DNA of 63,949 nucleotides, filler included, from Raillietiella orientalis (lineage: Eukaryota), in the NCBI GenBank assembly GCA_036172245.1. It is 7 parts of 7 records of this genome, joined end to end, with 100 filler letters (N's around TTAATTAATTAA, not from the genome) between each part and the next. Parts side by side here need not be neighbours in the genome. Positions count along the whole stretch, not along the records: positions 19,357 to 28,887 come from JAYWIR010000280.1; 6 more parts are not named here. One strand, given 5' to 3'. Positions 9,586 to 41,459 of the stretch are shown in pieces. The first letter of the stretch is position 1. Every line of letters starts with the position of its first letter. The notes under the pieces are model-generated. The model worked only from the letters and a program-made list of their open reading frames with translations. It searched no databases and had not been told where the DNA came from. The translations under genes were made by a program, and so were the position numbers.

Positions 9586-9594
9586 TCGTATGAA

Positions 9595-15007: not shown

Positions 15008-17427
15008 TTTGGCCGCGCCCGAGCACTCCAGGCCCTGGTCGGCAAGCAGACAAGCTGCTCCTGACTACCAGACGTGGCGCTCGGCCTTGGTTTTGTACTC
15101 CGCAATGTACCGGACGTCCGAGCATCGGGAGAATTGGAGGGCCTGCAGAAACTCTCTGCAGTTGGCCGCGCCTTCCCCGAAGCCACGGGGAAGCAGGCGC
15201 AAGAAGAACCGGCTGCAGAATTCGCGGACCGATCTTTTCAGATCGTCCCAGTCTACGAGCTCTCGAACGGCAAAGGTCCGGAGATGCTGGCGGAGGTGCT
15301 CCGCAGCCACCGGATTTCTTAACCAGTTGGCCGGCAACCTCCAGACGTGCGTCGAAGGGCCCTTGCCAGGCGGGAGTTGCTCAAACTCCAGCCTGTGGTG
15401 GTCGGAAAGCTCGGACGGCACGGGACCTCTTCGACCCACCGGGCAATGCAGGTGATCGTCGAGGAACACATGGTCCGGCAAAGCACGCATCCCGGGATCG
15501 TCGGCCAGCAAATTCGAGGCGTGCACCGACGCGCACATCTCGTTCACCAGCCGTTTCTCCTGGCGACTGTGAGACTCCTCCGATAGCGCGTGGACGTTGA
15601 AGTCCCCAGCTACGAGGTGAGCCACGTCGGGGTCAGAGTTGCTCAGCCAGCGGTCGCGCAGTCTCTCGAAAAACTCCAGTTTCTGGGTGTGACGCGTGGA
15701 GCCGCTTGGCGCGTACACGTTCGTGACGACAAGGTTGATCGATTCGGACCACTTGAGAACAAGTTGGCTCACACGACCTTCCTTGTCGAAACAAACGCTC
15801 CGCACCGCTCCCGCCACCCTGCCTTGTTCAAGGAACGCGACTCCGCAGGTATTCTGAGAGCCTGACCTCCAATGGAGCGTCCCGCCTGCGCGAACTTGCA
15901 GATCGGCCGCTTGCTGCTCGGAGAGTGCGTGAATCTCCTGCAGCAGGGCCAGATCGAAGTCGCGCAATACGTTGGCAACCAATCGCCTCTTCTCGTTGTC
16001 CTGCAGCCCGTTGACGTTCCAACAGGTCACTCGGACGCGACGGGAAGAAGCGAGACCGCGCATTGCTGCTACGGAAATGGAGGTGCGTTCCTCTTCCCGT
16101 CCGGCGAGGCATCAGCCGGGAGCACGGCGGATGAGGTAGCGCAAGCGCTTCCTGTCCCCGCCGAGCCGCTCGCGGCCGGCTCGGTTGAGTCGAGGACCAT
16201 TGCCTCTGGCTCCGAGGGGCATCGGGAACCGTTCCCGGCATCAGGCTCTTGCCTGGCAAGTTTTGGCTTGCGCGCAGCCCTGACCTTGTCTGATGCTTGG
16301 CGAGCCTTAGCGCTGCCCTCGGACTACTCCTCGGAGTCCGAATTCCGCGCGCGCGTAGGGCGTTTCGTCTGCCTCTTTATTTGCTGGCAGCCCGGACCTG
16401 GTCCAGCACTCTTAGAGGGTGCCTTCGTCGCCGATCCTCCTTCCTGGGTCATGGCAGCGGCAGCTCTTCTCTCGCCGCGGGTGTGTGCGACGGCGCGCGC
16501 GGCGGCAGCAGAGGCTTTTCCTTGCGCCTTCCTTGGCGCGTGGGGCTGCCTTTTCACCCCGCCTACCTTTTTGATCGGGAAGTGGGAAGGATCGCGCGGT
16601 TTACGCTCCTTCTTTTCCCCGACGAAGGTCCAGCCATCCTCACCGCCTTCCTCTTTGCCTCGGTTGGGCGCGAGGGCTTCCAAGGTCCTTCGCATCCTTT
16701 CCAAGGCCTCCGATACGGCGATGGAGGCCGGTGTCTCCATCGCCACGTCTGACTTCTGCACCTCCTTACCGGAAGGTGTAAGCAGAGTGGCTGGATTCTC
16801 GGGGGTCGCGCGAGGCTTTTCACCCTTGGCTGGCGATCGGCCCGCCGTGGCCGGCTTTCCTTTTGCGTGCAAAGGGGCGCGCGACCACTTTTTCGACGCT
16901 ACAGCGGACTTCTCGGGCGTGCCACCGCTATTTTGCTACATAGCGAGAACGGACGGAAGCGGCAGTTTTGCAGTCTGCCCGAGGTTTTTTTTAGACTGCT
17001 TTGCTCGGGGCTTGTTTTTAGCAGCTTGGAGAAGCTTTTTGTCCTTTTGTGCGGGCTTTTGAGGAGCATTGCTTCCAAACACGCCCGCGCAATCGGACTT
17101 TGTGCTTGTCCGCTGCGGAACCTCGTTCGCGCCGGATTTCTTCCCCGACGACGGAGAGGATGGAGTGGGCGCGGACGGCGATGTTGCAAGGAAACCTCCT
17201 CGTTCTTCTCTTTCGTTTTAGCTTGGCGCACTCGTTAATCAAGTTACTGAGCAGCTTACAGTATCGGCAACTGCGTGTTGGCCACTTCCGTGGACGGTAA
17301 CTCTTCTTCCCGCAGTTGTCGCAAGCTGGGGTTTTCCCGGCAAACCGAAGATAGACGACGACGTCACCGAGGAGGATCTGCGAAGGCATGAGCCTCCGGT
17401 TGTCCATAGTGACGCGCGCAGTCGAGA
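15008..17427 (-). mobile_element. E8: partial ORF1 plus ORF2 EN (ORF 15065..16063), cut on both sides by other insertions
   Basis: MRGLASSRRVRVTCWNVNGL, LQEIH, NVYAP, GDFN, SDH; degenerate ORF1 knuckles at ~17260-17330. Confidence 0.88.
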
Positions 17428-19256
17428 TTCACACCCGGATGTGCCGGGGCATTTATTTCCTTGAAAGAAAATTACATAGAAATGTCGCGTGGCGAACCCG
17501 AATATTCACCACTCCAAAACAGCTTGCTGGTCACCGGCTCCATGCCGGAGAGGTCCTTCCTAAGCGCGGGAATGGGAAATAAAGAAAAACAAAAAGAAAC
17601 AAAAAGTTCAAATGTGGGGGGGAACAAATGTTGTAGGGGTGGAAGGGCGGAGAAGGGATCTCGGTGCGCGTGGAAAGGTCCTCTAGATCCTATTCAGGAT
17701 CCGCACAAGCTGAGTCCTTTCAGCGCCCAAGTGGCGCCACTTGCAGACACTGGCGCGAAAAGGCGAGTCCAGTGTAAGGCATTGCCGGTTGTCTGACGCC
17801 TTCTTCTGGTGGCGTTCCAAGCCGCCACTATACCTCTGATGCAGCAGAGGACTGCTACACTAGCCGGCGGGGACAAGGCGTCACTACAGAAGAGGCGCCT
17901 TAAAACGTCCTTTGGGCCGCATCCGCGCAAGTACAAGATCGCCGCGAGACGATCCCACAAAGGGCGGAGGGCGCTACACTCAAGGGGAAGGTGAGGGAAT
18001 GTTTCTTTTTCCTCACTCCGGTCACAATTAGGATCCACAGCCCCCCGGGTGGTGTGGTGCAGGCGTGCAATGAATGGTAATCCCCTGATTACCACAAACA
18101 ACGCCACATCCTGCCATTTCAGGGGAAGGGATGCACTGTATTAGGACGCTGGGGGCCACTTTATCTCCTCCGGAGATAGTCCGAGTAGCACGCCCCAGCG
18201 TCGAATTCCGTTGGGCGGAACACTCGGCGTCCCAGCGTCAGCTAGCTGCCGAGATGACCACGCCTTTTTCGATTGTGTCCTGCCGCCTATAGTGCAGGAC
18301 ATGGTACATTTCCCCTGCTCGTTACTGTCCCTGGCATTCACAAGGAAGGGAAGCACTGGGTCGAGGGGGGTTATCAAGGCCCACAGAAGCTTGTCGTGGG
18401 ACTGCACGCTCTCCTGCAGCGTCCAGCGGGCGTGCCTTTTCATACAAGTGTTACTTGTGCCCGCCGGAACGTGGATCTTTCCCCGGGTGGAGACTGACTC
18501 GTGCAACCAGGCGGAGTTTTTCCCTGGGAGGCAGGAGATACAGGCGTTCTCCCGAACCGCAACGAAGATGCGTCGCAGCATATAGCCACAGTATGCTCTT
18601 CTGCAGACGCGCGCAGACAGAAACGACAAAAGTCCGCCGATTCCACAGGCTCGTTGGGCCAGGAGGCGTGCTGGAACGCACCAAGGCGTGTCCCTCAATT
18701 CGGCCGCGAGAGCGAGAGTCCTGAATCCAAGTTGCAGTTCCATGCGCTCCAGCGTAAGTACGCCAAGTCCACTGTCCCTACGTGGAGCGCACAAGTCTTT
18801 GAGCCGGACGCGGTGCCTCCGGTTGCCCCAGAGGGCTTTCCGTATAAGGCCCCTAGTCCGTGTCCTAATATGTTAAGGGGTAGGGCACACAAAAAGTAGG
18901 GGGCGAAGGAGGGGGGCCGCGAAAGCGTTCCATACCGTGGCCCGTTCCTGCAAGTGAAACATGCCGTCCCGGAACGTGCCGATCGCCGGCTCCACTTTTT
19001 GTAGACGGTCGGACCAGGCTTCTGCAGAGCAGAAGTCCCCCAACGGAACGACAAGGTACTTGATGTACCTGCCCGTGGGGATCCCCAAGCGGAACCAGTT
19101 TGACCGTCCGGCCCTCGTCGAGTCGGTGAGAAGCAACGACGACTTCGTGCTGTTTACCTGGAGGCCTGTCCCACGGTATAGCAACTCGAAGAAATCCTTG
19201 AGCGCCGATGCCGGGGTAGACCCGGGAAGCAGGAGCAGAAGATCGTCGGCATAGGC
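17428..19256 (-). mobile_element. E9: 3' half of L1/Tx1 element (from YADD to 3' hairpin), decayed
   Basis: AYADDLLLL at contig edge, PRRDSGLG, ETFPHLPLEC; AATAAATGCCCCGGCACATCCGGGTGTGAA. Confidence 0.88.
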
Positions 19257-19356
19257 NNNNNNNNNNNNNNNNNNNNNNNNNNNNNNNNNNNNNNNNNNNN
19301 TTAATTAATTAANNNNNNNNNNNNNNNNNNNNNNNNNNNNNNNNNNNNNNNNNNNN
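19257..19356. other. artificial contig linker
   Basis: same 100-nt N/TTAATTAATTAA/N linker. Confidence 0.99.
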
Positions 19357-20840
19357 CGACGACATCCCAGGCGGGACCCGCGGGCGTCCACGCGGCACGC
19401 AGGGTGCCAGACGCGACGCCATCTTGCTCGGATGCCCCAACACAGCATCCGCTGAGTTATGCAGCAGCGGCGGCGGCAGCGAACACTTTCGTACGCCCTG
19501 CACGGGAATATGGAAAACCGAGGGTATTAATCCTCCAAGACGTCCCGGAACTGATGGCACCGGAGAAAGAAAATGTACGCATAATAACATTCAGAACCGG
19601 GTTAATCCGCGTACATAATATTCGTGAGGTCTACTTCGCCCTGAACCGAGCCAATGTAGACTTCGACCGTGTGCAGGCTATCATCCCGTGCGCGAGTGGC
19701 TTCAGCATCCACACGGATGATGAACAATTGGCAGATTCCCTTCTCGAACAGGGAATAAACATTAACGGTAGAATGATACGGGGGCTGGGCGAGTTGTCCA
19801 CCACCACCGTACACATTGCGGGTGTTAGCAGGCTAACACCACAGAATGAGGTGTGGAGATTCCTTCAACAGTTTGGGGAGATAAAGCAGGCGGCTTTCCC
19901 CAACATTGTGGAACAAGTGTTCGCAGGAGTAGGCTTCGCGAAAATGAAGCTGAAGGATGGGGCACAAATTCCGGCAGTGTACCACCTAGACAATCATTCC
20001 CCTGAAGTAATGTTCCGGTACAAAATGCAACCGCCATTCTGTACCATTTGCAAAACATTCGGGCATCGGATGACAGCGTGCACAAAAGCACGCTGCTACC
20101 GTTGCAATAGGATCGGGCACTTAGCAAGACAGTGCCTTGAGCCGGAGGCGTGTTCGTTCTGCAAACTCCCTGGCCACGCCAAGTGGAACTGCGGAAAGTT
20201 TGAGGAGTGGAGGGCGTTGCGTGGTCTATCTCCCGTGCAAGAGAAACCACAAAAGCCGGCCGAAGAGCCGAAAAGAAATGTTGCGGAGAAGGCGAGGAGA
20301 ACCATCGAAGTCCCTCTTATATCGGAGGACGGCTTCGTGACAGTAAAGAAGAAGGGGAAGAGAAGGATGCTCGAGAACGAGCATCAAGACTCCGAAAAGC
20401 CCCAAGAAATTGCGGAAGAAGGCGAGAAGGCGGAAGAAGAACAAGAAGTGGCGGTGGCGGATAACCCTGCCCCGACATCGCAGGAAGACCTGCTAATAGT
20501 TGAGGAAATGGACAACCTGTCGAAGGAAGTCCAGCAGAAACCCGAACAGGTTGAACACGAGCAACTCTTACGTCGTTTGTGTGAAGTCCAAGAAGACATC
20601 AACAAAATAGTAGGAACGAAACAACGCGATAAGATGGAAAGGCAGATTCTTGCTGTTAAGCAGGATTATTGTGCGATGGTGAGTTTAGAAACACTCCCAC
20701 GCAAAATAGTAGAGAAGGCAGAATGTCCAGCAGAAGATCAAACCGGCACCGAGAGCGATGCCGGAAGTGAGAAACCATCTGCTGCCGGGAGAACGAAAAG
20801 ATCTCCCAGGCAGATGAAAACGAGAAAAGCTAAAAAGTAG
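19357..20840 (+). CDS. ORF1 (gag-like, RRM-like region plus three CX2CX4HX4C knuckles), 5' partial
   Basis: CTICKTFGHRMTAC, CYRCNRIGHLARQC, CSFCKLPGHAKWNC. Confidence 0.9.
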
Positions 20841-20850
20841 GATCCCCAAC

Positions 20851-23800
20851 GTGGCCTCGTCGCTGTCCTCGACCAGGAAGGTTAACATCGCTTCCTGGAA
20901 CGTAAATGGACTTAATGACCCAGGCAAAAGAAAAAGGAGATTGCAGAACATCGCACAACAACATGTGGTGTGCCTACAAGAAACCCACCATCTGGGAAAT
21001 CAAAATGTCCTGGAGATGGAACGCCGCTTTGATGGCAAACTGTTCGTCAGCGAGGGACAGAAAAAGACCATGGGCGTGGCAATCCTCATCAAAAACGAGC
21101 TTGCCCACACCATTTTGGAAACCTTCTGTCCCATACCTGGCAGAATAATCGGCATGCGACTGTCTTGTTCCAGCAACGTTCACCTCTTCCTGGTGAACGT
21201 GTACGGACCACACAAGTTGAAGCATCGGTGCGCGGAAAAACTACACGAAGAACTCCGCAAAAGAGTAGCACCAAAGGACATAATCATCGTCGCAGGAGAC
21301 TTGAATATCCTGGACGAGATTAAATATTCCCAGGACGCCAGAGGAAGAGAGGCGTATCGTCGGTTGTCCGATGATTTCGGACTCTTATGGCGAACAGCTC
21401 ACCACAAACCGATTGATCACGTCCTTCACAGTGCGGAGATCGACAACCGCATACAGGGGTTTCGCGACGTGCAAACTCTGCTGTCCGATCACCCGCTGAT
21501 ACGGTTCTCCCTCCGAACGGAGAATCCTCGACGAAAGAAGGCCACCAGGGCGGCGCTCATCTGCATGCCCGCCTGGTTTGAGACGCTTCCCTGTAACCAG
21601 GAGGTCATCGAGGCGATCCTGCGTGACTCCACCATCCGCAGAGTAGCCGACTGGGACAGGTTGAAGCATAAAATCCATTTATTCTGCAATATGCAGTATT
21701 TGAGTAAGCGACTGAGGCAGGAAGCGTACCGGGAGCTTAACATTCAAGATCGCTCCCTCTCAAAGTACTACGATCAGTAAGAGAGTCGGTACGTCTTCCA
21801 AAATGTAAAAGGGGAAATCGGCGTGCTGGAGAAGAGGAATCTGGCGACAGACATCTTCTGCATCCAGCATGAGGGACAAATGAGAGAAACGTCAGAGGAT
21901 ATTCTCGATGCATTTCATCGGCATTATGAGAATCACTTCAGTCGACAACATTTGTCTACACAAATACAACAAGCCTTTCTGGGACACCTCGAGAAGAGAA
22001 TAGACGACCTCCAACAAAACAGACTGGAGGAGGAGTTCTCCGAAGGCGAGGTGAAAGCTGCATTCGACGAACTACGTAAGGACGTGGCAGCAGGCCCTGA
22101 TAGCGTACCAGTTACGCACTACCAGCGGTACCTGCATGCCTACCTGCGTTTGTTCAAACAGCTCACCCTCTGCATCCGCGAAGAAGGCAAACTACCGAAG
22201 TCCTTCTATGAGAGCAGGATGAGATTGTTGCCGAAAGGAGGCGACCTTACGCAGGTCGCTCAATGGAGGCCAATCTCCGTCCTGAACTCTGATGCCAAGT
22301 GGTTGGCGAAGATCTGGTCCAACCGCTTAGGCAGGGTCATGCCGAAGCTGATCTCCCCAGTCCAAACATGTGCGGTCCCTGGCCGTCGCATGTTGGACAA
22401 TGTCAAGTGTGCCCAGGCTACCGTCGGACTCAGTCGATACGTCGGCGAGAACCTGGTGCTGGTGTTCACTGACATGGAGAAGGCGTTCGACTCCATCGAC
22501 CATAGGATGCTGCTGAAGATTCTGGATAAGCTGGGCCTTCCAGTATACTTCAGCGACTTCGTGAAGATGGTACTCAAAAACCAGTATTGCCGCATCAAAA
22601 TCAACGGCGAGGAGACGGCAGCAATTAGGATGGAACGGGAAGTCCGGCAGGGCGACTCCATAAGTCCGATGCTGTTCGTCATCTACATGGAGGCGTTGTC
22701 TTCCTTTATCGAGAGAAGCGAACGTCTACAAGGAATAACCATCGATGGCCAGCGTCTCACCCATCTGGCGTACGCCGATGACCTCCTCTTCTTCATCAAG
22801 GGAGAGAGGAACCAGCGGGCGTTCCTGGATGTGGTAGACCTGATGGAACAAGGTCTCGGGCTAAAGATCAACGCCCAGAAGAGTCAGCTCCTAACCGTTG
22901 GAATACTAGACCTCTATACCCTCACGGGGAGAGGATTCCGAACGGTGGACACGGCCAAATATCTGGGAGTTCACGTCGACGACGACTCTGCGTCGAAGCT
23001 ACTGTGGACAACAATCCTGGAGAAAACGGCCAAGAAAGCAGCGAAGTTTACCCGACTGGACTTTGGAATAAAGCGAAAGGCTAACCTCTGGAACGGAGTA
23101 CTCCTTCCAAAGGTGCTCTTTGGAGCAGCCTTCGCAAGAATGAACAAAGACACCACGAGGGAATTCGAGAAGCTGCAAAGGAAAACATTGTGGGGCTACT
23201 ATCGCCCAAGAGTACGTCTAAAACCCTTGTGTCGTCCCAGGGACGAAGGAGGCTCCGGGATGAAATCGCTTGCACATTCCATGGAAATCATGGATACGCG
23301 ACACATCCTGGATATCGCCACCCATTGGGATGACTGGCCATATGCGGCGCATAGGGCCTACGCGTTGTTGCTTTACAACTCGAAAGGCCTGGTGACTGCG
23401 CTGCTAGAACGAGCAGGGGAATGGATCCACATCGACCCAACCTGGAGGAGAAAGCAACGGCTAGTGCGTAAGCACAAGATGAAAATCGTGCCGAAAAGCA
23501 GGGAACTCTGGCTGGAAGAATCCATCGTGGTGATCCCCTGGATGCTTCCGGTCCCTCCGGACACGCGAAGCTGGATCTACCAGCGGCCCAGAGTTACCCT
23601 GCAACGAATTCAGGAATGGCGCCGAGGAGGCTACCTACATCACTCGCGTGTACTTCGGTACATAGAGATGATGCTAGGGAGGTTAACCCACCAGAGCCGC
23701 GAGGTGTGGATTAACCACAACGACTTCGCGTGGTCCAGGGTAACCAGGATGAACCTCCGAAGACTGATTAAAGAAGAGGACCGCGACACCAGTGCCCTCC

Positions 23801-24369
23801 AACAAGCCGCCGATCGCTACAGGAGTGACAGGATCAACCTGTTGGCGATCGGAACGACACTCTGAGGGAGTGACCTTCCGCCGGACACCCAGGACAACCT
23901 CCTGATGTTTTACCATGGAGGAATCCTGACGGGGTCCAGGCTACAACACTTCACGAGAAGAAGGGAAGACAGAGACTGCACAGCGTGTGGTGACATCGAC
24001 ACAAGACTTCACATCTTGACGTGTCCCACACTGCTTCACGACTGGCTGATCCTGAAAAGGATCATCGGACGCACCACCAGCTCCGTAATGGAAATCCTCG
24101 CCGGGATGTTTCAGGGAGATGGTAATGTTCCCTGTTACAATCCCATGGTGAGGACGACCATCGCCCTCTTCATCACCGCCATACTTGTGCGGTGGTGGAA
24201 AATGAGGAAAGCCAGGAGAGCCGCACCTCCGATGGAGATCCTCCAGGGACTCCTGAAGAAGGAAATCGGCATCAGGAACTGTGGAAGAATCCAAGCCTGG
24301 ACGTACAGATTCATCCTGAAGAGGATCGAGGACGACGCCCGGGACCATCCAGCTGGAATCCCACCCTGA
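20851..24369 (+). pseudogene. ORF2 (APE endonuclease, reverse transcriptase, zinc knuckle) with two nonsense changes
   Basis: single frame throughout; TAA at 21778 (TAC in sister copy E11) and TGA at 23863; WNVNGL, LQETH, SDH, QWRPIS, DMEKAFD, RQGDSISP, YADD, CTACGDIDTRLHILTC. Confidence 0.9.
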
Positions 24370-24516
24370 AAAGCAGAACTCTAGTGACTTCAAAAAACTT
24401 CAGAGTGAAAAAGTGATAGTGTAAAGAATGAATGAGAGTTCGAATGCAAAAATTGTAGAGTGAATGATACCATACAGAAAATAAATTTACCCCACCCCTT
24501 GTGGGACTTGGGGAAA

Positions 24517-24638
24517 ATCGTAGGCGAGGAAGGCGACTGAGCCGCGATTATTGCTAGTTGAAAACTTTACCCAATACCACGCCAAGGCAGTGCGTAAAAC
24601 CACTGCCGAGGCAATTTTTGTGTGCCCTGACAGGGCAA
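24517..24638 (+). ncRNA. U4: U4 spliceosomal snRNA lacking its first ~19 nt
   Basis: ATCGTAG...GCGATTATTGCTAGTTGAAAACTTTACCCAATACCACGCC matches the metazoan U4 core as I recall it; intact k-turn 5' stem-loop; central stem-loop; Sm site AATTTTTG (24613-24620); terminal hairpin TGCCCT-GAC-AGGGCA. Confidence 0.93.
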
Positions 24639-24657
24639 GTGCCTGCCGAAGATTAGT

Positions 24658-26571
24658 GTGGAAGTGACTGTGCCACCGAGGGAAATACCCGACAGCAGCA
24701 GCAGCAGCAGCGCCGAAGGACCCGAGGTGGAAGTCCTCCAAACAAGAAGTGCGGCAGCAACGGCAGCCGCAAGGAGGCACAAGGAAGAAGTGGAGCAGCC
24801 GTCGACCCCCATGGAAGAACACATGGAGGTAATATGCGGCAGTGGCGAGGAGGCAGCGGCGACGCCGAGGGTCGCGCCCGCGGCAGGCTTTGCTGCGCCG
24901 GCGGCGGCGATGCCGAGGGTCGTGCCCGCGGCGACGGCGATGGAGGTCGTGCCCGCGGCGGCGACGCCGAGGATCGCGCCCGCGGCGGGGAAGGTCGTGC
25001 CGGCGGCGGCGATGCCGAAGGTCCCGCCTACGGCGACATCGACGACGGCGACGACGAGGGTTGCGCCCGCGGTGGCGGCGGCGTCCCAGGCGGGAGCCGC
25101 GGGCGTCCACGCGGCGCACACAGGGCAAGGTGCGACGCCATCTTGCTCGGCGGCGGCGGCGAAACCGCCGTTTTCGTATGCGGCGGTGACGGCGGGGCAG
25201 GCCTCTGCCCTGCCAAACAGGAAATTCGGGAAGCCTGCGAGTGAGAACATCACTCGAACCAAAGAACCCATGGTGAAGTTGAGTCCAGCGTCCAAACCCA
25301 TCACCTTTAAAACCGGGCTGGTCCGGTTTAATAACATAAGGCAGGTGTATTGTGCGCTGTATAGGACAAATGTCGACTTTGATCGATTGCAGGCGATAAT
25401 CCCGAACTCAGCGGGATTCATCCTGTATACTGACTGCGAAGAGCTGCGGGAGGCCCTTATCGAAAAGGGCATCAACATTCAGGGGAAGATGGTGCAAGGC
25501 ATTGGCGAAATGCCTTACACGACAGTCTTCCTAAGTGGAATTGGCATCCTCACCGAGAGAGAAGCGATATGGGACTTCCTGTCCCAATACGGAGAAGTTC
25601 TGGAAATGAAGACCCAGAACATCTCCGGAGACATCTTCTCGGGCGAGTTGATCGCCAAAATTAAATTGAAGGACGGGGCGCAGATCCCAGGCAATGTCCA
25701 TATCGACGAATCGTCGCAAGACGTTTCCGTCAGATATAGGCAGCAGCCGATCTTTTGCACCGGCTGCAAAAATTTTGGCCACCGGATGGGCGCGTGCCCT
25801 AGGTCGCGCTGTTTCCGGTGCGGAAAGATGGGCCACGTGGTCCGAAATTGCACCATGCCCGAAGTTTGCTCGTTCTGCAAACAACCCGGGCATGCGAAAT
25901 GGAGTTGTCCGGAGTTTGCTAACTACCGGACAATCCGTGGAGAATCCCCCGTGAGGGAAAGGGTGCTAGCCGAGGTGATTAAACCTCAGCTAGCCAAACA
26001 AAAGAAGGTGAGGGAGGCAGCTCCGGTCTCGGCGGACGGGTTCGTCGAGATAGGGAAAAAGGGGAAGAGGAAGATGCTCGTGAGGGAGCAACAAACCCCC
26101 CCTACTCGTGAGGTTGCAGCAGTGGAAGGCGAGAAGATGGAGGTGACAGAGGAAGTGGTGAAGATGCCGGAACCCACCCCGGAGTCGCAGGAGGCCCTGC
26201 AACTCACCGAGGAGGTGGTCAAACTAGCGGAGGAGGTTCGTCAAGGCCAGACAGAGGCGCAACAGGAGCAACTCCTGACCCGCATCTCCGAGGCTCAAGA
26301 CGAAGTCAACCGTATGGTTGTGGAGCCGGAGCGAGAGAAGCTGGAGGCCCAGCTCTCGGAAGTCAAGGCGGTCTACTGCGCGACGGTCTCCCTGGAGACC
26401 CTCCCGCGCAAGGTGATCGCCAAGGCGGAACGCTCCGGAGAAGATCCCGAGTCGACCGACCACACCGGCACCGAGAGCGATGCCGGTAGCGAAAAACTCA
26501 CTTCTTCAACGGGGAAACTAAACAAGTCTTTCCAGCAGAAGAAGTTAAGGAAGGCGCGCAAGAACAAGTAG
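24658..26571 (+). CDS. ORF1, intact reading frame with Ala/Pro-rich N-terminus and three CCHC knuckles
   Basis: 637-aa ORF; frame open from 24631, first ATG at 24811; CTGCKNFGHRMGAC, CFRCGKMGHVVRNC, CSFCKQPGHAKWSC. Confidence 0.9.
   Translation: MEVTVPPREIPDSSSSSSAEGPEVEVLQTRSAAATAAARRHKEEVEQPSTPMEEHMEVICGSGEEAAATPRVAPAAGFAAPAAAMPRVVPAATAMEVVPAAATPRIAPAAGKVVPAAAMPKVPPTATSTTATTRVAPAVAAASQAGAAGVHAAHTGQGATPSCSAAAAKPPFSYAAVTAGQASALPNRKFGKPASENITRTKEPMVKLSPASKPITFKTGLVRFNNIRQVYCALYRTNVDFDRLQAIIPNSAGFILYTDCEELREALIEKGINIQGKMVQGIGEMPYTTVFLSGIGILTEREAIWDFLSQYGEVLEMKTQNISGDIFSGELIAKIKLKDGAQIPGNVHIDESSQDVSVRYRQQPIFCTGCKNFGHRMGACPRSRCFRCGKMGHVVRNCTMPEVCSFCKQPGHAKWSCPEFANYRTIRGESPVRERVLAEVIKPQLAKQKKVREAAPVSADGFVEIGKKGKRKMLVREQQTPPTREVAAVEGEKMEVTEEVVKMPEPTPESQEALQLTEEVVKLAEEVRQGQTEAQQEQLLTRISEAQDEVNRMVVEPEREKLEAQLSEVKAVYCATVSLETLPRKVIAKAERSGEDPESTDHTGTESDAGSEKLTSSTGKLNKSFQQKKLRKARKNK
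24850..25095 (+). repeat. imperfect ~27-bp coding tandem repeat (AATPRVAPA-like)
   Basis: recurring GCGGCGACGCCGAGGGTCGCGCCCGCG variants. Confidence 0.75.
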
Positions 26572-26587
26572 AACTCTCTCCCCTTTC

Positions 26588-28887
26588 ATGGCCTCGTCGC
26601 TGTCCAATGCCAGGAGGATTAACATCGCCTCCTGGAATGTGAATGGACTGACGGACCAGGGAAAGAGAAAAAGTGTCAAGCGGACCATCGCAAGACAGGA
26701 TGTGGTGTGCCTACAAAAAATCCACCGTCTCGGGCAGCAGAACGCCCTAGAGATGGAACGCCGATTCGACGGACAACTGTTTGCCAGCGAGGGACAGAAG
26801 AAGACCATGGGGGTGGCGATCCTCATCAAGAACGAGCTCGTCCACACCATTTTGGAAACCTTCTGTCCGGTACCTGGCAGAGTAATCGGCGTGCGACTGT
26901 CCTGGTCCAGTAACGTTCACCTCTTCCTGGTGAACGTCTACGGACCGCACAAGATCAAGCATCGGTGCGCGGAGAAACTGCAAGAAGAACTCCGCAAACG
27001 AGTGGCACCGAAGGACATAGTCATCGTCGCTGGGGATTTCAACATCCTTGATGAAATCAAGTATTCTCAGGATGCAAGGGGAAGAGCGGCGTATCGGCGG
27101 CTATCCGACGAGTTCGGACTTTTGTGGCGAACAGCTAGCCACAAGCCGATCGATCACGTCCTCCACAGTGCGGAGATAGACAACCGCATCCAGGGTTTTC
27201 GCGACATTCCACATCTGTTGTCCGATCACCCATTGGTACGGTTTACACTCCGCACTGAAAATCCCCGTAGGGAAAAGGCCACCAGGGCGGCGCTCATCTG
27301 CATGCCCGCCTGGTTCGAAACGCTTCCCTGTCACCAGGAGGTCATCGAGGCGATTCTGCGGGACACCACCATCCGCAGAGTCGCCGACTGGGACAGGTTG
27401 AAGCACAGGATCCATCTGTTCTGCAATATGCAGTATTTTTGCAAGCGCATGAGGCAGGAAGCGTACCGGGAGCTGAACATCCAAGATCGCTCCCTCTCGA
27501 AGTACTTCGATCAGTACGAGAGTCGGTACGTCTTCCAGAACGAGAGTCAAGGATGCAGATATCTTCTGCATCCAGTGCGACGGCCAAGAGCGGCACACGT
27601 CGGAGGATATCGCGAAAGCCTTTCACAGGCATTACGCGAGACACTTCCGACGACAAGATCTCTGCCGCTCGAGTCAGCAAGCCTTCCTGGGTTACCTCGA
27701 GAAGAGGACGGACGACCTCCAAAGAAGTAGACTGGAGGAGGAGTTCTCCGAAGAAGAAGTGAAGACTGCGTTTGGACAGCTTCGCAAGGATGTGGCAGCA
27801 GGCCCTGATAGTGTACCCATCTCGCACTATCAGCGGTACCTGCACGCCTACCTGCGTTTGTTCCACCAGTTGACACTGTGCATCCGAGAAGAAGGACGAC
27901 TTCCGGAATCCTTCTACGAGAGCAGTATGAGATTGCTGTTAAAAGGAGGCGATCTCACGCAGATCGCTCAATGGAGGCCGATCTCGATCCTAAACTCAGA
28001 TGCCAAGTGGTTGGCGAAGATCTGGTCCAACCGCTTAGGCAGGGTCATGTCGAGGCTGATCTCTCCGGTCCAGACGTGTGCAGTCCCAGGACGACACATG
28101 TCTGACAATGTCAAGTGCGCCCAGGCCACCGTCGGACTCAGCCGATACGTCGGCGAGAACCTGGTGCTGGTGTTCACTGACATGGAGAAGGCCTTCGACT
28201 CCATCGACCACGGGATGCTGCTGAAGGTTCTGGAGAAGCTAGGGCTTCCGGAACACTTCAGCAACTTCGTGAGGGCGGTACTCCAAAACCAGTACTGCCG
28301 TATCAAAATCAACGGCCAAGAGACGGCAGCAATTAGGATGGAACGAGGAGTCCGGCAGGGCGACTCGCTAAGTCCAATGCTGTTCGTCATATACATGGAG
28401 GCGCTGTCTTCTTACATCGAGAGAAGCGGTCGTCTATCAGGGATTTCCATTGATGGTCAGCACCTGACCCATCTGGCATACGCAGATGATCTCCTCTTCT
28501 TCATCAAGGGAGAGATGAGTCAACGAGCGTTCCTGGATGTGGTCGACCTCATGGAACAGGGACTGGGCTTGAAAATCAACGCCCAAAAGAGCCAGCTTTT
28601 GCCCGTCGGAATCCTGAACCTCTCCACTCTCACGGGGAATGGATTCCGCACGGTGGAGACGGCCAAGTACCTGGGAGTCTACATCGGCGACGACTCTGCG
28701 TCGAAGCTGCTGTGGACGGAAATCCTGGGGAAAACGGCCAAAGAAGCAGCAAAGTACACCCGAGCGGACTTTAACATGAAGCGAAGAGCCAACCTGTGGA
28801 ACGGAGTACTTCTTCCAAAGGTACTCTTCGGGGCGGCCTTCGCAAGAATGAATAAAGATACCACGAGGGAAGTAGAAAAGCTGCAAA
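26588..28887 (+). pseudogene. ORF2 EN-RT, frameshifting deletion near 27540, catalytic LQE changed to LQK; 3' partial
   Basis: ORFs 26588..27730 and 27759..; comparison with E10. Confidence 0.87.
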
Positions 28888-28987
28888 NNNNNNNNNNNNN
28901 NNNNNNNNNNNNNNNNNNNNNNNNNNNNNNNTTAATTAATTAANNNNNNNNNNNNNNNNNNNNNNNNNNNNNNNNNNNNNNNNNNNN
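28888..28987. other. artificial contig linker
   Basis: same 100-nt linker. Confidence 0.99.
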
Positions 28988-31900
28988 GATGCTTGCAGTC
29001 CTTGCGCTTAGGGACAGCCCGCTCGGCGTGAAGATTCGTCGCAGCAAGTCTCTTGCGGTGTCCACAAGATGCATTAGTGCTGTTGTTAGCCTACGCCACG
29101 GTCCTTGTAGGAAACCGCAGTCCAGAAGTAGGTGCGGAATCGACTCCGTCGATCCGCACCGAACGCAGTTCGCAGACGCAAGTCCCCCGCAGTCACGATG
29201 CCAACGCTCGTTGCACTGAAAACCCCAGTGAACGAAAAGCAGCACGGCTTGTTTCCAAACAAGGGGGAGCAGCGAACTGTCAATACTCTGTTAAGGGACT
29301 ACAAGTTCTTCGGGGGTGACAGCAAGTTCTTCTGCCCACCGGAGGAGTCCCATTGCAGTAGCACGAGGAGTGGCGGCGTCCGCCAACTCACTCGTCTTCC
29401 AGGCTCCAAGGAGTTTGGTTTTTCCCGCTATCGTGCAGGAAACCTCCCACCTCGCCGGTTGGTAACTGTCGTTTCTTGCCATGAGGGCAGACAGCGCTGC
29501 GACAAGAGGCGTGGCAGCCATGGTAGAAAACCTCACCTCGTCCTGCAGTACTTCTTCCAAGGATCGTAAAAAAAATTGGCGCAGGGGACAAAGAATTTCA
29601 GGGCGTATTACTTGGAACGCCGCCCAGGATTCAACAGACTCCTTCTGCCAAGCTTCAAAGTTCATTGGGCGGCGGGAGACCCACGACTGAGCTTCCAGAA
29701 GTGCGGTCAACTGCCGCAAAGGAAACCCGAGACCCCGCTTCCTGTATTGAGTGCCCGGCAAAAGCGAGAGCAGTACTCCGCTGCCGGCGCATCTTCGCAG
29801 GAGAATGCGCGCAGGCAAACACAGGGGAGATGTACACAGCTGGGCACACAGTGCCAGCAGTCGGAACTGCACCTGCAGTCCGATTCGCTCCATTGACAGG
29901 ATACCGAAACCAAAATCCTGACGTGGAGCACCCAAGTCTTCAAGGCGGATCCTGGGTCTCCCCGGACCCCAGAAAGCGTTTCTAAGCACGCGTTCAGCCC
30001 GCTGTTTTGCCGCAGAGGGGGGGTCCAAAACATAAAACAGGGGACGGAGGAGGGGGGCCACAAAGGTGTTCCAAAGAGTCGCCCGTTCCTGCGAGGTAAA
30101 CTTGCCGTTGATGAACGGGCTGACAACCAACTCTGCTTTCTGAAGGCAGTCCGACCACCCTTCGGCTGCGCCGAGATCGCGCCACAAAACGCAATGGTAC
30201 TCAAAGTACCCGCCCGTGGGGATCCCCAGGCGGATCCAGTCGGACTGCCCCTCCCACGACGTACCCACAGGAACGACCATGCTCTTCTCTCTGTTCACGC
30301 TCACGCCCGCTCCCCGACGCATCAGGTCGAAGAAATCCTCGACACTGGATGCCGGGTGGACATGGGGAGCAGAAGAAGCAGGTCATCAGCGTAGGCGGCC
30401 ACGGCAGGCGTTCCCGGGCAGGAGCTTGGCAAGTGAGACAGCGTCATTCTGTATGCTCTAAGCACCAACTCAAACAAGATGCTGAAGAGCAACGGGCTGA
30501 AGCTATCACCTTGCCGAATGCCTCTGCGCACGGGAATACCGCACACGCGGCAGTTGCTGAAAGAAATACAGGTTAGCGCGTGACGCCAGCAAGCGTGCAA
30601 ATAAAGCAGTAGATGCGCCGGAAATCCAAGGCGTTCCATAAGCCTTAATAGCAGCTTCTGCTTTACGCAGTCGTACGCCTTGTGGAGATCGACCGCGACC
30701 ACCAAGGCGCCTGGCGTTCGCTCCTGCCGTCGGCGCCTGTTCTTCTTGCCTGCAACAGTGACTTTCGCAGCTGCCTGGCTTTCCAGCGCCACAACTTCCT
30801 GCAGCTGCATCCATGTACGCGCGAAAAGGATGTTCGCCTCCAAGGATCGTCTTGGAACCGCGTAGGTTTGTTCCGGGCTCACTACAGATTCCGCGATACT
30901 TCCTAACCGCGCGACCCACAGCTTGGATTTCAACTTCACGTCCAAATTCACCAAGGTGATCGGACGCCAGTTGTTAAGTTGACGCAAGTCTCCGTCTTTC
31001 GGCAGGAGACGCACCTTCGCTGAGCGGAAGGAATCCGGGACATTCCCGGATTCACTCATCAGCGTCGTTAGTCTCAGCCTCAAGGGAATGAGCCTCACTG
31101 CAAAGCACTGATAAAACTCTGCAGGGAGCCCATCCTCGCCTGGCGCCTTTCGTCTCTTCAGCCCTGCGATGGCGGACGAATATTCATTTGCCGTGAAGGG
31201 CTCGTTGAGACGTTCGCGTTCCTCCTCGCCGACAACACGAGCATCCTGAGACAGGAGTATCTCAAAGAGAATATCCTCCGTCGGTGATTACGCGTACAGC
31301 GAGGAGTAGTAGCGATTGACAATGCGGCGTTCTTTTCATCGGCGGATCGCTCGTGGTTTTTTGCGAGTTTTTGCGGACGACGCTTTTATTTGCCGCTGCG
31401 GCTTTTCGTGCAGTGGTCTCTTGAACCCGACGAATTTCCGCTGCGGCTCTTTTTCTTACAAGTACCGGGCACTTTTTGATTTAGTGCCCGGAATCTTTGC
31501 AATAGCGGCATCTTGGAGTAAGACACCCTTTAGTTCGGTGCCCCTCCTTGCCGCACTGCTCGCACGCGCGACTCTGGCCTATGAACCACAGGTGAACGAC
31601 CGTGCCGTTCACCTGCAGCTGCTCAGGCGCAACACGCCTGTTCGCAATGGTGATCCGCGCGGCAGCTTCTCCAATGTGGACAGAGGGGGAATCCTTTAGA
31701 GGATTTGGCCTCCTCCACAGAGCGTGCACGGTGGCGAAATTCGCCAGCACACTTACGACATCGCGGTCGGAGATTTCCGGTTCGATGTCGCACAATTGAA
31801 CGACAAAAGAGTCGTCCATCGCGGTAGGTAGGACTTCCTTGCCATTGATGGTCAACGGCGTACGGAGAAGGCGCTGCACAAGTGCTGCGTTCTTGCACCA

Positions 31901-32333
31901 AATCTTCGTATATTCCAACCTGCCAGCAGGCATCATGGCAAGGAGTTCCTCCTCGCGAACGCCTATCCGGACGAGCTCATCTTTGAGCTCACGACCGATT
32001 CTCCCGTTAAGTGGCCCACTGACCTTATAACGGAGTGCAGGCATGTATCCTGATGACACATATGCCTGCAACTCCGCATCGCAGGGTCCTGGTCTTTGGG
32101 AGGTAACAACGGCGTAACTCCTCACCGGGGGCGAGGAAATCATTACGGAGGATGCGACCACTTCTAGTGCAGCTGAAGTGCATCCAGTGGCTTGCTCCTT
32201 TACACTATACTGTATACTGTCCATGTTGCACTATGCTACTTGGCAGATTGCACAGGAACACAAAAGTGCGAGCGAAAACGCAGGCACAAAGTTGCCCGAT
32301 CGTTGGCGCGGATAGACGCGGAAACACGTCTGC
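28988..32333 (-). mobile_element. E12: L1/Tx1 element with ORF1 (31481..32224) joined at ~31330 to ORF2 linker/RT/C-terminus (EN absent)
   Basis: CEQCGKEGHRTKGC; NWRPITL, DLHKAYD, GIRQGDSFSP, YADD, CVRCGSTESIPHLLLDC; 5' GCAGACGTG at 32333. Confidence 0.87.
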
Positions 32334-33645
32334 ACTGTACGAGCCCAAGAGATCAAACGGATCTCCGGAGGGCGGCTATGCTACAGGTGTGGGAGAGCGA
32401 AAAGTTGCGGTGTAGCCTACCTGCTTCGGACAGCCGTCGAGGCCGCGGCTCGGGGCGTACGGTTCGACGATCACGGTCGTGTCGGCCAGCTGACTCTCAG
32501 GTGGTCCGACTCGATCGATCTGATCGTCACGAACGTGTACGCACCGAGCTGCGCGGACCTGATGAACAGGAGTGCGAGGAAAGAGTTTTTCCTTGCCCTC
32601 CGGCGAGACTGGCTGACCGAAGCAGGCGTGCGGAATGACCATCTGGTTGCAGGCGATTTCAACGTTCGCCTGAAACCAGATGGGCAGAATCCCGAGCGTG
32701 ACCTGGTCAACGAGGTGTGCATGGCGGTGCACACCTGTAATTTGTTGGCCAGTGCACCGGGGATGGAAGACAGCATTGACCACGTGTTTCTTGACGAGCA
32801 CCTGTGCCCTCGCGTGGACAGGCGCGGCAAGTTACCGTGCGAGCTGTCCGACCATCGCCCGCTAGTCCTCGAGATCCATCCGCGCGACAGGGGCCCCCCT
32901 CGTCAGCGTGGCGTCTACCAGGGGACTGGCTGAAGCTCCCGAACGCGGCGGAACATCAACGCACGTTCATACGGAGCTTCAGGCTGCGGACACTCCAGGA
33001 TTGGGACCGCTTCAAGCGGTCGGTACAGTTCTGCGACCAGTTCCCTCTGCACAGCCTACCTACGGGTTTTGGGACCGGGATCCGTAACGAACGAGCCTAC
33101 CTGCAGGCCGTCGTTACGCCAGGACCCCCGACATCCGCAGGCTGGCGGAATACAAAGCGGTAGCCGAGAGGCAAGCCTGGAAGTCTGGATCGGCCAGCTT
33201 ACTTGACGATCAGGGCCAGGAGCACTCGGCACCTGCCCAAATCCGCGGCCTGCTGCGGAGTTACTACTCCTCCCTGTATGCCAGGGCACCTCCGGAGAGG
33301 AACGTCTCACGACTCCTGCTTCCGGAAGGCACTCCAGCGATCGGGGAGGAGCATAGAAAGACCCTTGACGAGCCTTCCACGATGGACGAGATCCTCTCGG
33401 CCATCGGAAAGCTCAAGAGGCGAAAGGCTCCAGGGGAGAACAGCCTGCCCGCGGAGTTTTATCAAACTTTCGCGGCTGAGCTCACCCCCCTGGTACAGCA
33501 ACTCACCTTGCTGATACGCGAAACAGGTGACGTTTCCGCCTCGTTTCGTTCGGCAAAGGTGCGGCTCCTTCCTAAGGGAGGAGATCTGAGGAGCATGAAC
33601 AACTGGCGTCCCATCAAAATAGTGAATGCGGACGCCAAGTTGCTA
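32334..33645 (+). mobile_element. E13: internal ORF2 fragment (EN to RT NADAKLL), cut by insertions on both sides
   Basis: NVYAP, GDFN, IDH, SDH, KAPGENSLP, NWRPIKIVNADAKLL. Confidence 0.87.
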
Positions 33646-38283: not shown

Positions 38284-38324
38284 GTTGTCACCCGGGTGCG
38301 CCGAGCGTTTATTATACACTATCC
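38284..38324 (-). mobile_element. E16: extreme 3' end of another element, antisense in E15 EN
   Basis: minus strand AATAAACGCTCGGCGCACCCGGGTGACAAC. Confidence 0.8.
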
Positions 38325-38424
38325 NNNNNNNNNNNNNNNNNNNNNNNNNNNNNNNNNNNNNNNNNNNNTTAATTAATTAANNNNNNNNNNNNNNNNNNNN
38401 NNNNNNNNNNNNNNNNNNNNNNNN
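38325..38424. other. artificial contig linker
   Basis: same 100-nt linker. Confidence 0.99.
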
Positions 38425-38447
38425 CTACCTTGTACCGCCACTCAATC

Positions 38448-38492
38448 AATTCTTATATAACATAGAACTTGCAATTCTATAAACTCAAGAAT
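38448..38492 (-). tRNA. trnC: mitochondrial tRNA-Cys(GCA), armless
   Basis: ATTCTTG-agttt-ATAGAA-ttGCAag-TTCTAT-gttata-TAAGAAT-t; next to trnY. Confidence 0.7.
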
Positions 38493-38508
38493 ATTTATAT
38501 TAAATTAA

Positions 38509-38568
38509 TGATAAAAGATTCCATCATTAATAAATTTACAATTTACCGCTCTTCTCAGCCATTTTACC
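38509..38568 (-). tRNA. trnY: mitochondrial tRNA-Tyr(GTA)
   Basis: GGTAAAA acceptor, D arm, gtaaa-ttGTAaa-tttat, 3-bp T arm. Confidence 0.88.
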
Positions 38569-38573
38569 ACCCT

Positions 38574-38627
38574 AAGATTATAAGTTAAATAAACTATTAA
38601 CCTTCAAAGTTAAAAATATAAAATCTT

Positions 38628-38628
<1 letters not shown>
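38574..38628 (+). tRNA. trnW: mitochondrial tRNA-Trp(TCA), T-armless
   Basis: agtt/aact D stem, ttaac-ctTCAaa-gttaa, TV-replacement loop. Confidence 0.88.
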
Positions 38629-40164
<1,536 letters not shown>

Positions 40165-40169
<5 letters not shown>

Positions 40170-40219
40170 TATGGCAGAATTAATGCACTGGACTTAAAAT
40201 CCATCAATAATATTTAGTA
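40165..40219 (+). tRNA. trnL2: mitochondrial tRNA-Leu(TAA), copy 1, T-armless
   Basis: TCTAATATGGCAGA start, tgga-ctTAAaa-tcca. Confidence 0.85.
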
Positions 40220-40227
40220 ATAAAAAT

Positions 40228-40632: not shown

Positions 40633-40679
40633 CCCCACACTCATAATTACCCATTAATCCACCCATCATAACTAAACAT

Positions 40680-40733
40680 ACTAACATAGCAATTCAATGC
40701 ACTGGACTTAAAATCCATCAATAATATTTAGCA
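40680..40733 (+). tRNA. trnL2: mitochondrial tRNA-Leu(TAA), copy 2
   Basis: 36 nt identical to copy 1 including anticodon arm; D stem gca/tgc retained. Confidence 0.75.
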
Positions 40734-41448: not shown

Positions 41449-41459
41449 GAATTTATTCA

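Follow-up and report, generated by a model that had tools for sequence, protein, structure and literature searches.

A candidate U4 snRNA-specific family of L1/Tx1-like LINEs in Raillietiella orientalis

Spliceosomal snRNA genes are known targets of several transposable elements. Keno, a member of the Tx1 clade, is a LINE specific for U2 snRNA genes (PMC4494074; PMC4640811). It is a close parallel to what is proposed here for a family from Raillietiella orientalis, family D, in that a LINE with an apurinic-type endonuclease uses one precise site within a spliceosomal snRNA gene (PMC4494074; PMC4640811). However, the target of Keno is U2 and that of family D would be U4. Another example is Utopia. 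In Phytophthora it occupies U2 arrays holding different Utopia families; U2 from nt 39 lies downstream of the element and an intact U2 (not nt 1-38) lies upstream (PMC4640811). Utopia is comparable in its precise 3′ junction within an snRNA gene, its variable 5′ junctions, its tandems and its mixed-family arrays (PMC4640811), and its arrangement is the one proposed below for family D: a whole or partial U4, the element, and then U4 from nt 20 to the end. It differs in its restriction-like endonuclease, its U2 target and its duplications of 0 or 20 bp, compared with 121 nt here (PMC4640811).

Other systems resemble family D in part. The crocodilian Tx1-Mar families with U1/U2 5′ heads, and SINEU, are of the L1/Tx1 type and derive their 5′ ends from snRNA (PMC4494074). 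Tx1-Mar nevertheless targets the Mariner transposon and not snRNA genes (PMC4494074), whereas at the present locus the 3′ end of an element also abuts U4. U6/L1-type chimeras likewise carry a sense snRNA directly 5′ of a LINE copy, but there the LINE is usually 5′-truncated and flanked by ordinary target duplications (10.1101/2025.02.02.635956); the downstream element here looks full length, and the upstream flank of its U4 is the exact 3′ end of another element. R2 and R1, which sit in rRNA genes, have been put forward as a model of elements transcribed together with their target (PMC4494074). Family D may share their logic, in which the element lacks its own promoter and target sequence within the RNA aids precise joining; enzyme type and target both differ. 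A 2015 survey names only U2, U1 and U6 as transposon targets among spliceosomal RNA genes (PMC4640811), and no report of a U4-specific transposon was found in the literature searched, in keeping with the initial annotation, which named Keno and Utopia as elements targeting U2 and no U4-specific one.

The window, the whole 63,949-nt stretch of R. orientalis DNA analysed, is a chain of contigs of ~9.5 kb joined by N44-TTAATTAATTAA-N44 linkers. The contig at 19357-28887 (JAYWIR010000280.1), bounded by the linkers at 19257-19356 and 28888-28987, carries two family D elements, E10 and E11, with U4 between them. Both LINEs are incomplete because the window consists of joined contigs with N linkers between: the 5′ side of E10 is cut by the contig start and the 3′ side of E11 by the contig end. 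Both ends of this contig fall inside repeats, and the four nuclear non-satellite contigs of the window are patchworks of LINE pieces lying in either orientation. The features of the locus are as follows.

19357..24517, plus strand: E10, family D LINE with a complete 3′ end (Pfam domains; blastn/tblastn against E11)
19404..20840, plus strand: E10 ORF1, partial, with CCHC zinc knuckles (Pfam)
20851..23865, plus strand: E10 ORF2, endonuclease and reverse transcriptase, 1004 codons (Pfam, tblastn)
23866..24517, plus strand: E10 3′UTR, 652 nt
24480-24485, 24490-24513 and 24514-24517: AATAAA, hairpin and AAAA of the E10 3′ end
24518..24638, plus strand: U4 snRNA, ~nt 20 to the 3′ end (RF00015 match, fold)
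24639..24810, plus strand: leader from U4 to the first ATG, 172 nt, with a (CAG)n run
24811..26571, plus strand: E11 ORF1, 586 aa, with Ala/Pro-rich N-terminal repeats and three CCHC knuckles
26588..28887, plus strand: E11 ORF2, endonuclease and reverse transcriptase, cut by the contig end

The U4 identity proposed in the initial annotation is confirmed by cmscan at the gathering threshold, which aligns the full U4 model RF00015 (positions 1-138) to 24495-24635 on the plus strand with 77.7 bits (E 1.5e-15; gathering cut-off 46 bits). When the search is restricted to 24517-24760, model positions 20-138 score 70.9 bits, so that the 22 nt preceding 24517 contribute only ~7 bits; in this 5′ end region ~11/20 consensus positions match, with a 3-nt insertion. 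These 22 nt are better read as element tail, or as ambiguous, and the small contribution places the E10-U4 junction somewhere at U4 nt ~12-20. The model alignment and a free-energy fold recover the k-turn of the 5′ stem-loop (GGC/GCC stem, GA/GA pairs, GCGA loop), the U4/U6 stem I stretch, and the central and 3′ hairpins. The Sm site AAUUUUUG is also in place, and the piece reaches the natural 3′ end of U4. Nucleotides 1-19, the part of stem II that pairs with U6, are not convincingly present, being either missing or unrecognisable. The view that U4 is structurally intact from about nt 20 holds. No further snRNA match occurs in the window, even at E<=1.

On its upstream side U4 meets the end of E10, which runs, as first described, from AATAAA through a hairpin to AAAA and is joined straight to U4, with TCGTAGG directly after 24517. 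The hairpin itself is not more stable than shuffled sequences (z -1.16). Tail, U4 and leader abut exactly, and nothing but U4 separates the tandem elements, another observation that stood.

Family D belongs to the L1-type LINEs on both sides of U4, in agreement with the earlier assignment. Pfam finds zf-CCHC in the family and Exo_endo_phos and RVT_1 in both copies, and no Pfam match to a C-terminal zf-RVT in E10. The closest solved structure to its ORF2 is LINE-1 ORF2p (E 1e-45 for the reverse transcriptase part and 5.7e-10 for the apurinic-type endonuclease part), with R2 far weaker among solved structures (2.6e-25). A protein search with the reverse transcriptase ORF gave relatives only 25-28% identical among the top-ranked matches, in the near length class as well as in the longer one, the named best ones being lizard and fish reverse transcriptases. 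We call family D L1/Tx1-like, with the Tx1 clade as a candidate placement.

The two elements differ considerably from one another. Their ORF2 sequences are 82% identical, and their ORF1 proteins, in which the three CCHC knuckles align, 48% identical (230/481 residues). With a Nei-Gojobori script applied to ungapped codon alignments, E10 and E11 show dN/dS of 0.127 for the endonuclease (317 codons) and 0.150 for the reverse transcriptase (437 codons), at dS 0.62-0.66. Each copy carries a single disabling lesion in ORF2: in E10 an in-frame TAA at 21778 (TAC in E11), and in E11 a frameshift near 27540, where 29 nt are missing by comparison with E10. The start position of ORF2 is GTG in E10 and ATG in E11. 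These comparisons indicate that E10 and E11 are related but distinct active sublineages, separately selected, and not decayed duplicates. The dN/dS values, the ORF1 divergence and the single lesions point to two independent insertions rather than duplication in place, and two independent insertions of separately selected sublineages around one U4 are far likelier than a single accident.

Downstream of U4, the ORF1 frame of E11 has a TGA at 24628 and is open beyond it, from 24631, as had been seen. The first ATG 3′ of U4 in any frame, however, comes at 24811 (CCCCCATGG) and belongs to the ORF1 frame, so that the open stretch upstream of it carries no weight and was rejected as coding evidence. 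The further claim that E11 has no recognisable 5′UTR does not survive, as 24639-24810 can be an ordinary 172-nt leader. This leader is either the 5′UTR of E11 or the 3′ flank of U4, with an undefined boundary between the two, and it shows no similarity to the 5′UTR of the second LINE family of the window (48 and 64 of 300 shuffles were as good). From U4 nt 20 to the ORF1 ATG (24518-24810, 293 nt) there is no ATG in any frame, a situation met with P = 0.023 in shuffles and in 7/924 windows of the contig; it gives a weak hint in favour of U4 specificity. A stretch at 24748-24770 was considered as the 5′ end of a next U4 gene, in which case the leader would consist of a spacer followed by nt 1-19 of that U4, and was rejected as unsupported: the likeness is weak, the stretch is a CAG/GCA-rich run, and there is no model match at E<=1.

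Contigs from an independent run, X1, bear on both junctions. Record 3 (455 nt) matches 24186-24369 (10 differences) and 24476-24641 (5 differences) on either side of 105 unlike letters, and reads as a different 3′UTR variant in which the tail meets U4 at the same junction. Record 4 (354 nt) spans 24612-24971, from the U4 3′ end into the leader and ORF1 of E11. X1 contigs with other 3′UTR variants rejoin the window sequence at 24473-24478. Every X1 contig departs from the window sequence at 24609, the best ones differ from it by 2-5%, and the junction contig may come from this very locus in a different strain and not from a second copy. Several X1 contigs end at ~24507-24516, which breaks in the k-mer graph explain as well as different flanks do. 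Summed contig depth, which is not a copy number, falls from 77-92 on the 3′UTR to 33 in the junction bin; as this measure also loses contigs over conserved stretches resembling human sequence, U4 among them, the drop was left out of account.

Further copies were sought in other collections. In the genome_contigs collection the tail had 0 matches, and of 32 pattern matches for the reverse transcriptase ORF 0 were relatives. With antisense spurious ORFs across leader, U4 and tail as probes, 0/311 candidates matched in the 90%-cluster protein library, and the representative protein library returned one match, of low complexity. The sole metagenome locus matching the 22-nt tail was set aside as a chance match, its contig having no U4 match and no resemblance outside these 22 nt.

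A second LINE family in the window offers a comparison from the same genome. A 16-nt word, present at 1701-1716, occurs in three contexts: between the 3′ end of element X and the 5′ start of element Y, between the 3′ end of X and an antisense reverse transcriptase, and between an antisense reverse transcriptase and the 5′ start of Y. The word encodes the reverse transcriptase motif (D/H)AKL(I/L), in frame with the flanking reverse transcriptase. The second family is thus demonstrably site-specific, and its target is the conserved (D/H)AKL(I/L) codons in the reverse transcriptase genes of other LINEs. In its tandem pair exactly one 16-bp target duplication lies between the elements, and the three contexts make a tandem pair holding a single target duplication a pattern of the LINEs of this genome. 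Its 3′ end is built like that of family D, with AATAAA and then ~23 nt that include a hairpin, and it too lacks a long A tail; the spacing differs, with 16 nt between its elements and 121 nt between E10 and E11.

Our preferred reading, to which we give a probability of roughly 0.55, is that family D is an L1/Tx1-like LINE specific for U4 genes that integrates at about nt 19/20. Its 3′ end has an AATAAA of its own and a short defined tail in place of a long poly(A); that end abuts U4 at nt ~20 in E10, and an element of a different sublineage begins behind the U4 3′ end. The X1 contig that repeats the tail-to-U4 junction, the site-specific neighbour family and the precedent of the Utopia arrays in Phytophthora are consistent with this reading and lend it support. 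A LINE has been counted as target-specific when one kind of sequence makes up >20% of its flanks (PMC4494074); the window shows just one family D 3′ junction and one 5′ region (1/1 each), with one X1 variant contig in addition, and this small number speaks against the reading. Of the U4-targeting LINE in the initial annotation, the U4 and the LINE type stand and the independent sublineages add support, whereas the absence of an E11 5′UTR does not stand; the Tx1 clade, a whole U4 with its promoter upstream, transcription from that promoter and the ~120-bp duplication stay conjectural. Other observations also speak against U4 specificity: a duplication of 121 nt would be unusually long, the 5′ end of E11 is undefined, the stretch downstream of E11 where U4 would be expected lies off the contig, family D has no close relatives elsewhere (25-28% identity at best), and L1-type enzymes fuse snRNA copies 5′ of LINE copies without targeting.

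Under the preferred reading, a U4 gene would be nicked by the endonuclease on its bottom strand, at nt ~19/20, and the nick would prime reverse transcription. The new copy would then attach its 5′ end to the same U4 gene, at the 3′ end of that gene or immediately beyond it, either by top-strand cleavage ~120 bp downstream or by pairing of a cDNA whose U4 part derives from a U4-element co-transcript. U4 from nt 20 to the end would be duplicated and a whole U4 would stay upstream; a second insertion, into that upstream U4, would yield E10, U4(20-end) and E11 in this order. An insertion would in this way rebuild a complete U4; neither U4 nt 1-19 nor a U4 promoter was seen upstream of E10, the 5′ flank of which lies beyond the contig start at 19357.

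An unlikely alternative is a chimera formed in one event by template switching, with U4 as an accidental passenger and family D without preference for it. The reverse transcriptase would copy E11 RNA to its 5′ end, jump to the 3′ end of U4, stop at U4 ~nt 20 because of U4/U6 stem II or bound proteins, and jump again to the 3′ end of E10 RNA. Sense copies of U1-U6 snRNAs 5′ of a LINE are a known L1-type product (10.1101/2025.02.02.635956), and tripartite chimeras from double template jumps have been reported in Magnaporthe (PMC2104539). The family D enzyme is L1-like, U4 (24518-24638, plus strand) lies in sense directly 5′ of E11 (plus strand), and it ends at its natural 3′ end, as if a mature snRNA had served as template. 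The reported cases, however, usually combine a 5′-truncated LINE with a full-length U6 (10.1101/2025.02.02.635956), whereas E11 has a complete ORF1 and a 172-nt leader and its U4 lacks the 5′ end. A single event would also need two jumps and the RNAs of two sublineages, and upstream of U4 it would have to leave the exact 3′ end of E10 where an ordinary flank is expected. Nor does it predict the same junction behind the different 3′UTR of X1, unless that contig is the same locus, and the second family shows that tandems here arise by repeated site-specific insertion.

A further alternative, improbable in our view, makes U4 from nt 20 to the end a 5′ head inherited within the E11 sublineage, which would have acquired it on a single occasion through template switching or 5′ transduction. 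The head would resemble the U1 and U2 heads of some crocodilian Tx1-Mar families, and the tandem would have arisen separately, by self-tail targeting or unequal crossing-over. Record 4 of X1, which again joins the U4 3′ end to an E11-like leader, is in line with this, as is the ATG-free run through U4 and leader. The 3′ end of E10 would nevertheless need to fall precisely at the head's first base, and growth by crossing-over misfits neighbours that differ at dS ~0.6 under selection; such a head also explains no function, as snRNA genes have no internal promoter (PMC4494074). Very improbable is chance or artefact, in which a U4 pseudogene in LINE-rich DNA was randomly hit by E10 or repeats were mis-joined: the LINE mosaics of the four nuclear non-satellite contigs and the contig ends within repeats would allow it, but two X1 contigs bridge both junctions, these are exact with no extra DNA between tail, U4 and leader, and a random insertion within one ~140-bp sequence is itself improbable.

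The U4-specific reading can be extended to the fate of the host gene, in a form that we regard as improbable. Insertions would spare U4 by duplicating nt 20 to the end and rebuilding a promoter-bearing whole U4 upstream; the U4 promoter would drive a capped U4-leader-ORF1 RNA, ATG-free over the 293 nt of U4 and leader, and the U4 part of this RNA would guide the next 5′ joining. If true, this would be an R2-like co-transcription strategy on an RNA polymerase II snRNA gene, leading to arrays of the element and U4(20-end).

LINEs that insert site-specifically in multicopy RNA genes serve as models of targeted DNA integration that does no harm. A U4-specific family, if true, would add a new spliceosomal RNA gene target, and a ~120-bp duplication, if real, would represent a way of inserting that leaves the host gene unharmed and may make use of the host promoter. 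Because a second site-specific LINE is present in the same assembly, R. orientalis may prove rich in targeted L1/Tx1-like enzymes.

Two LINE copies of family D, an L1/Tx1-like family, flank a piece of U4 snRNA in the following arrangement.

19357-24517 (+), E10, the upstream family D copy
24518-24638 (+), U4 piece, from about nt 20 to the 3′ end
24639-24810 (+), candidate leader of E11, the downstream family D copy
24811 onward (+), ORF1 of E11

The initial annotation took this spacer to be U4, and the Rfam U4 model confirms it at the gathering threshold, matching 24495-24635 (+) with 77.7 bits (cut-off 46; E 1.5e-15; model positions 1-138). A search restricted to 24517-24760 recovers positions 20-138 at 70.9 bits; together, the two scores make the presence of the U4 body from nt ~20 certain. 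The 22 nt preceding the body add ~7 bits, agreeing with the consensus at ~11/20 positions with a 3-nt insertion, and are better taken as the tail of E10 than as U4; the tail-to-U4 junction could fall at any point from U4 nt ~12 to 20. The structure is kept, as had been proposed: the model alignment and a free-energy fold contain the 5′ stem-loop (GGC/GCC stem, tandem GA pairs, GCGA loop), the stem I stretch, the central hairpin, the Sm site and the 3′ hairpin. E10 likewise ends as first described, with AATAAA (24480), a hairpin (24490-24513) and AAAA (24514-24517) leading directly into TCGTAGG. No other snRNA in the window was matched at E≤1.

The window comprises seven separate contigs sorted by falling length and set apart by six pairs of 44-N runs around TTAATTAATTAA. 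As these are separate pieces in a chain, adjoining contigs have no physical linkage.

1-9594, contig 1, G+C-rich
9695-19256, G+C-rich
19357-28887, E10-U4-E11 structure
28988-38324, G+C-rich
38425-47624, animal mitochondrial DNA
47725-56877, satellite
56978-end, satellite
9595-9694, 19257-19356, 28888-28987, 38325-38424, 47625-47724 and 56878-56977, N44-TTAATTAATTAA-N44 linkers

The three other G+C-rich contigs (1-19256 and 28988-38324) form a mosaic of L1-like LINE pieces facing either way, several of which are nested in antisense within other RT genes (for instance, with a 3′ end at 5458). The mitochondrial contig (34-42% G+C, strong GC skew) encodes, under code 5, cox1, cox2, atp6, cox3 and nad3, then nad5, nad4 and nad4L on the opposite strand, then nad6 and cob, the order of the arthropod ground pattern. 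Pfam confirmed COX1, COX2, COX3, two Proton_antipo_M and Cytochrome_B; ARAGORN in default bacterial mode returned 0 tRNAs on this contig, and Rfam two weak tRNA matches. The last two contigs (47725-63949) consist of a 277-278-bp satellite in 33, 5.3 and 19.9 copies with 88-94% matches.

The contig starts inside E10 and stops inside E11, truncating the 5′ side of the former and the 3′ side of the latter; of the 3′ ends only that of E10 is visible, and of the 5′ regions only that of E11. Both encode an ORF1 with CCHC knuckles and an ORF2 with Exo_endo_phos and RVT_1. The solved structure nearest to the RT part is LINE-1 ORF2p (E 1e-45; R2 at 2.6e-25), and LINE-1 is also nearest to the endonuclease part (5.7e-10). 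A search of 5.8 billion protein clusters gave top-ranked relatives with only 25-28% identity, led among the named ones by lizard and fish reverse transcriptases; family D may belong to Tx1. No further family D copy was found in the window, where the remaining LINE pieces, those of 1-19256 and 28988-38324, show 23-34% protein identity to it. The two copies share 82% DNA identity in ORF2 over 2461 aligned columns (84-85% in protein) and 48% protein identity in ORF1 (230/481 residues; DNA 53-67% per 200-column block). A Nei-Gojobori script applied to ungapped codon alignments gave dN/dS values of 0.127 for the endonuclease part (317 codons) and 0.150 for the RT part (437 codons), with dS of 0.62-0.66. 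Each ORF2 carries one disabling lesion, a TAA at 21778 in E10 (TAC in E11) and a frame-shifting 29-nt gap near 27540 in E11, whose ORF2 ATG is GTG in E10. The low dN/dS and single lesion per copy indicate that most of the divergence built up in active lineages; E10 and E11 represent distinct retrotransposition events, one from each of two sublineages, rather than a duplication decayed in place.

The E11 ORF1 frame is indeed open from 24631; the further claim that E11 has no recognisable 5′UTR does not follow, because 24518-24810 lacks ATG in any frame and the first one, at 24811 (CCCCCATGG context), is in the ORF1 frame, so that an ordinary leader of 172 nt could occupy 24639-24810. The absence of ATG from the 293 nt of 24518-24810 (shuffles, P 0.023; 7/924 contig windows ATG-free) is a post-hoc hint only. 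The leader contains a (CAG)n run (24695-24712), and the N-terminal part of ORF1 (24853-25090) has Ala/Pro-rich repeats spaced irregularly, 21-54 nt apart, a region that is partial in E10 because its contig begins at the matching point. Arg-rich antisense open frames of 213 aa (24487-25128, -) and 303 aa (24567-25478, -) cross the leader and U4; both seem to be incidental products of GC-rich repeats, and a protein search found no relatives of either.

Run X1, an independent public sequencing run, shares 38% of sampled words of 23900-25100, and 196 of its contigs were placed on the E10-U4-E11 contig at 80% likeness (12 at 99% or more, 37 at 95-99%, 42 at 90-95% and 105 below 90%). Record 3 (455 nt) matches 24186-24369 (10 differences) and 24476-24641 (5 differences), the 106 letters between these blocks being replaced by 105 unlike ones; it is a further 3′UTR variant that shares the tail and enters U4 in the same way. 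Record 4 (354 nt), spanning 24612-24971, leads from the U4 3′ hairpin into the E11 leader and ORF1. Both junctions are thus real DNA outside assembly GCA_036172245.1. Three further joints (24369>24478, 24386>24478 and 24208>24473) represent 3′UTR variants with the last ~40 nt in common, and single 3′UTR positions are covered by up to 8 different contigs, which indicates that family D is multicopy. Since every X1 contig departs from the window at 24609, and the closest of them diverge by 2-5%, record 3 could come from a further copy or from this locus in a different strain. Contig depth, which is no measure of copy number, was left out of the argument; contigs resembling U4 may also have been removed by filtering.

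A second, non-family-D LINE family is represented by element parts X and Y.

4-1716, X, 3′ part of an element, contig 1
1702 onward, Y, 5′ part of an element, head to tail with X
35332-33632 (-), X again, 95% identical
35974 onward (+), Y again, 78% identical
1701-1716, 33632-33647 (-) and 35974-35989, 16-nt word

The word at 1701-1716 is common to the X and Y alignments, with an exact 11-mer core at 1706, 33632 (-) and 35978. It lies between an X 3′ end and a Y 5′ start, between an X 3′ end and other DNA, and between other DNA and a Y 5′ start. Where only one element adjoins the word, the opposite flank is a LINE RT gene in antisense, and the reverse complement of the word codes for a conserved (D/H)AKL(I/L) motif in frame with the flanking RT. 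These contexts and the motif show that the family inserts antisense into LINE RT genes at a single site, precisely at the codons of this motif, and makes a target duplication of ~16 bp, exactly one copy of which separates the tandem pair in contig 1. Its 3′ end is built like that of family D (AATAAA, ~23 nt with a hairpin, no long A tail). Site-specific insertion and element-duplication-element tandems are therefore habitual among the L1-like LINEs of this genome, which raises the prior for insertion into U4, although 16 nt separate the elements there and 121 nt at E10-U4-E11.

According to one survey, snRNA-gene targeting had been reported only for Keno and Utopia (U2), Dada-U1 and Dada-U6, and Utopia shows precise 3′ junctions, variable 5′ junctions and tandem occurrence (PMC4640811). 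Arrays in Phytophthora have, downstream of Utopia, a U2 that begins at nt 39, and upstream of it intact U2 genes, not nt 1-38; the authors could not exclude partial U2 duplication on insertion (PMC4640811). This layout is the same as that proposed here for family D and U4. Dada targets have been extended to tRNA and 5S, though not to U4 (PMC8869645), and a literature search covering few subscription journals or Repbase reports found no paper on a U4-specific transposon. Insertion of family D specific for U4 genes is given a probability of about 0.55, on an evidence base of one or two junctions. It accounts for the two junctions, for the presence of two sublineages and for the X1 variant, and agrees with the second site-specific family and the Utopia arrays.

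Template switching offers another route to such structures. Some Tx1-Mar families, which target a Mariner element, have U1- or U2-derived 5′ heads ascribed to it (PMC4494074), snRNA/LINE-1 chimeras are described with sense snRNA on the 5′ side of a usually truncated LINE part (10.1101/2025.02.02.635956), and double template jumps have been reported (PMC2104539). A chimera accounts for U4 ahead of E11; a plain one gives no reason for the exact 3′ end of E10 adjoining U4 at nt ~20, which requires a double template jump or targeting, and a multi-jump chimera is considered unlikely. A heritable U4 head, with the tandem due to another cause, leaves that 3′ end equally unexplained and is more doubtful still. 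Chance or artefact, including mis-assembly, is highly improbable given two exact junctions and bridging X1 contigs.

The E10-U4-E11 structure is real, and its initial interpretation is partly supported. U4 targeting would require a 121-nt duplication or homology-guided 5′ joining, both hypothetical; it may rebuild an upstream U4 and allow read-through from the U4 promoter. If a census of junctions confirms it, U4 becomes a new target of an element of known kind, and the geometry may be an unusual one that spares the gene.
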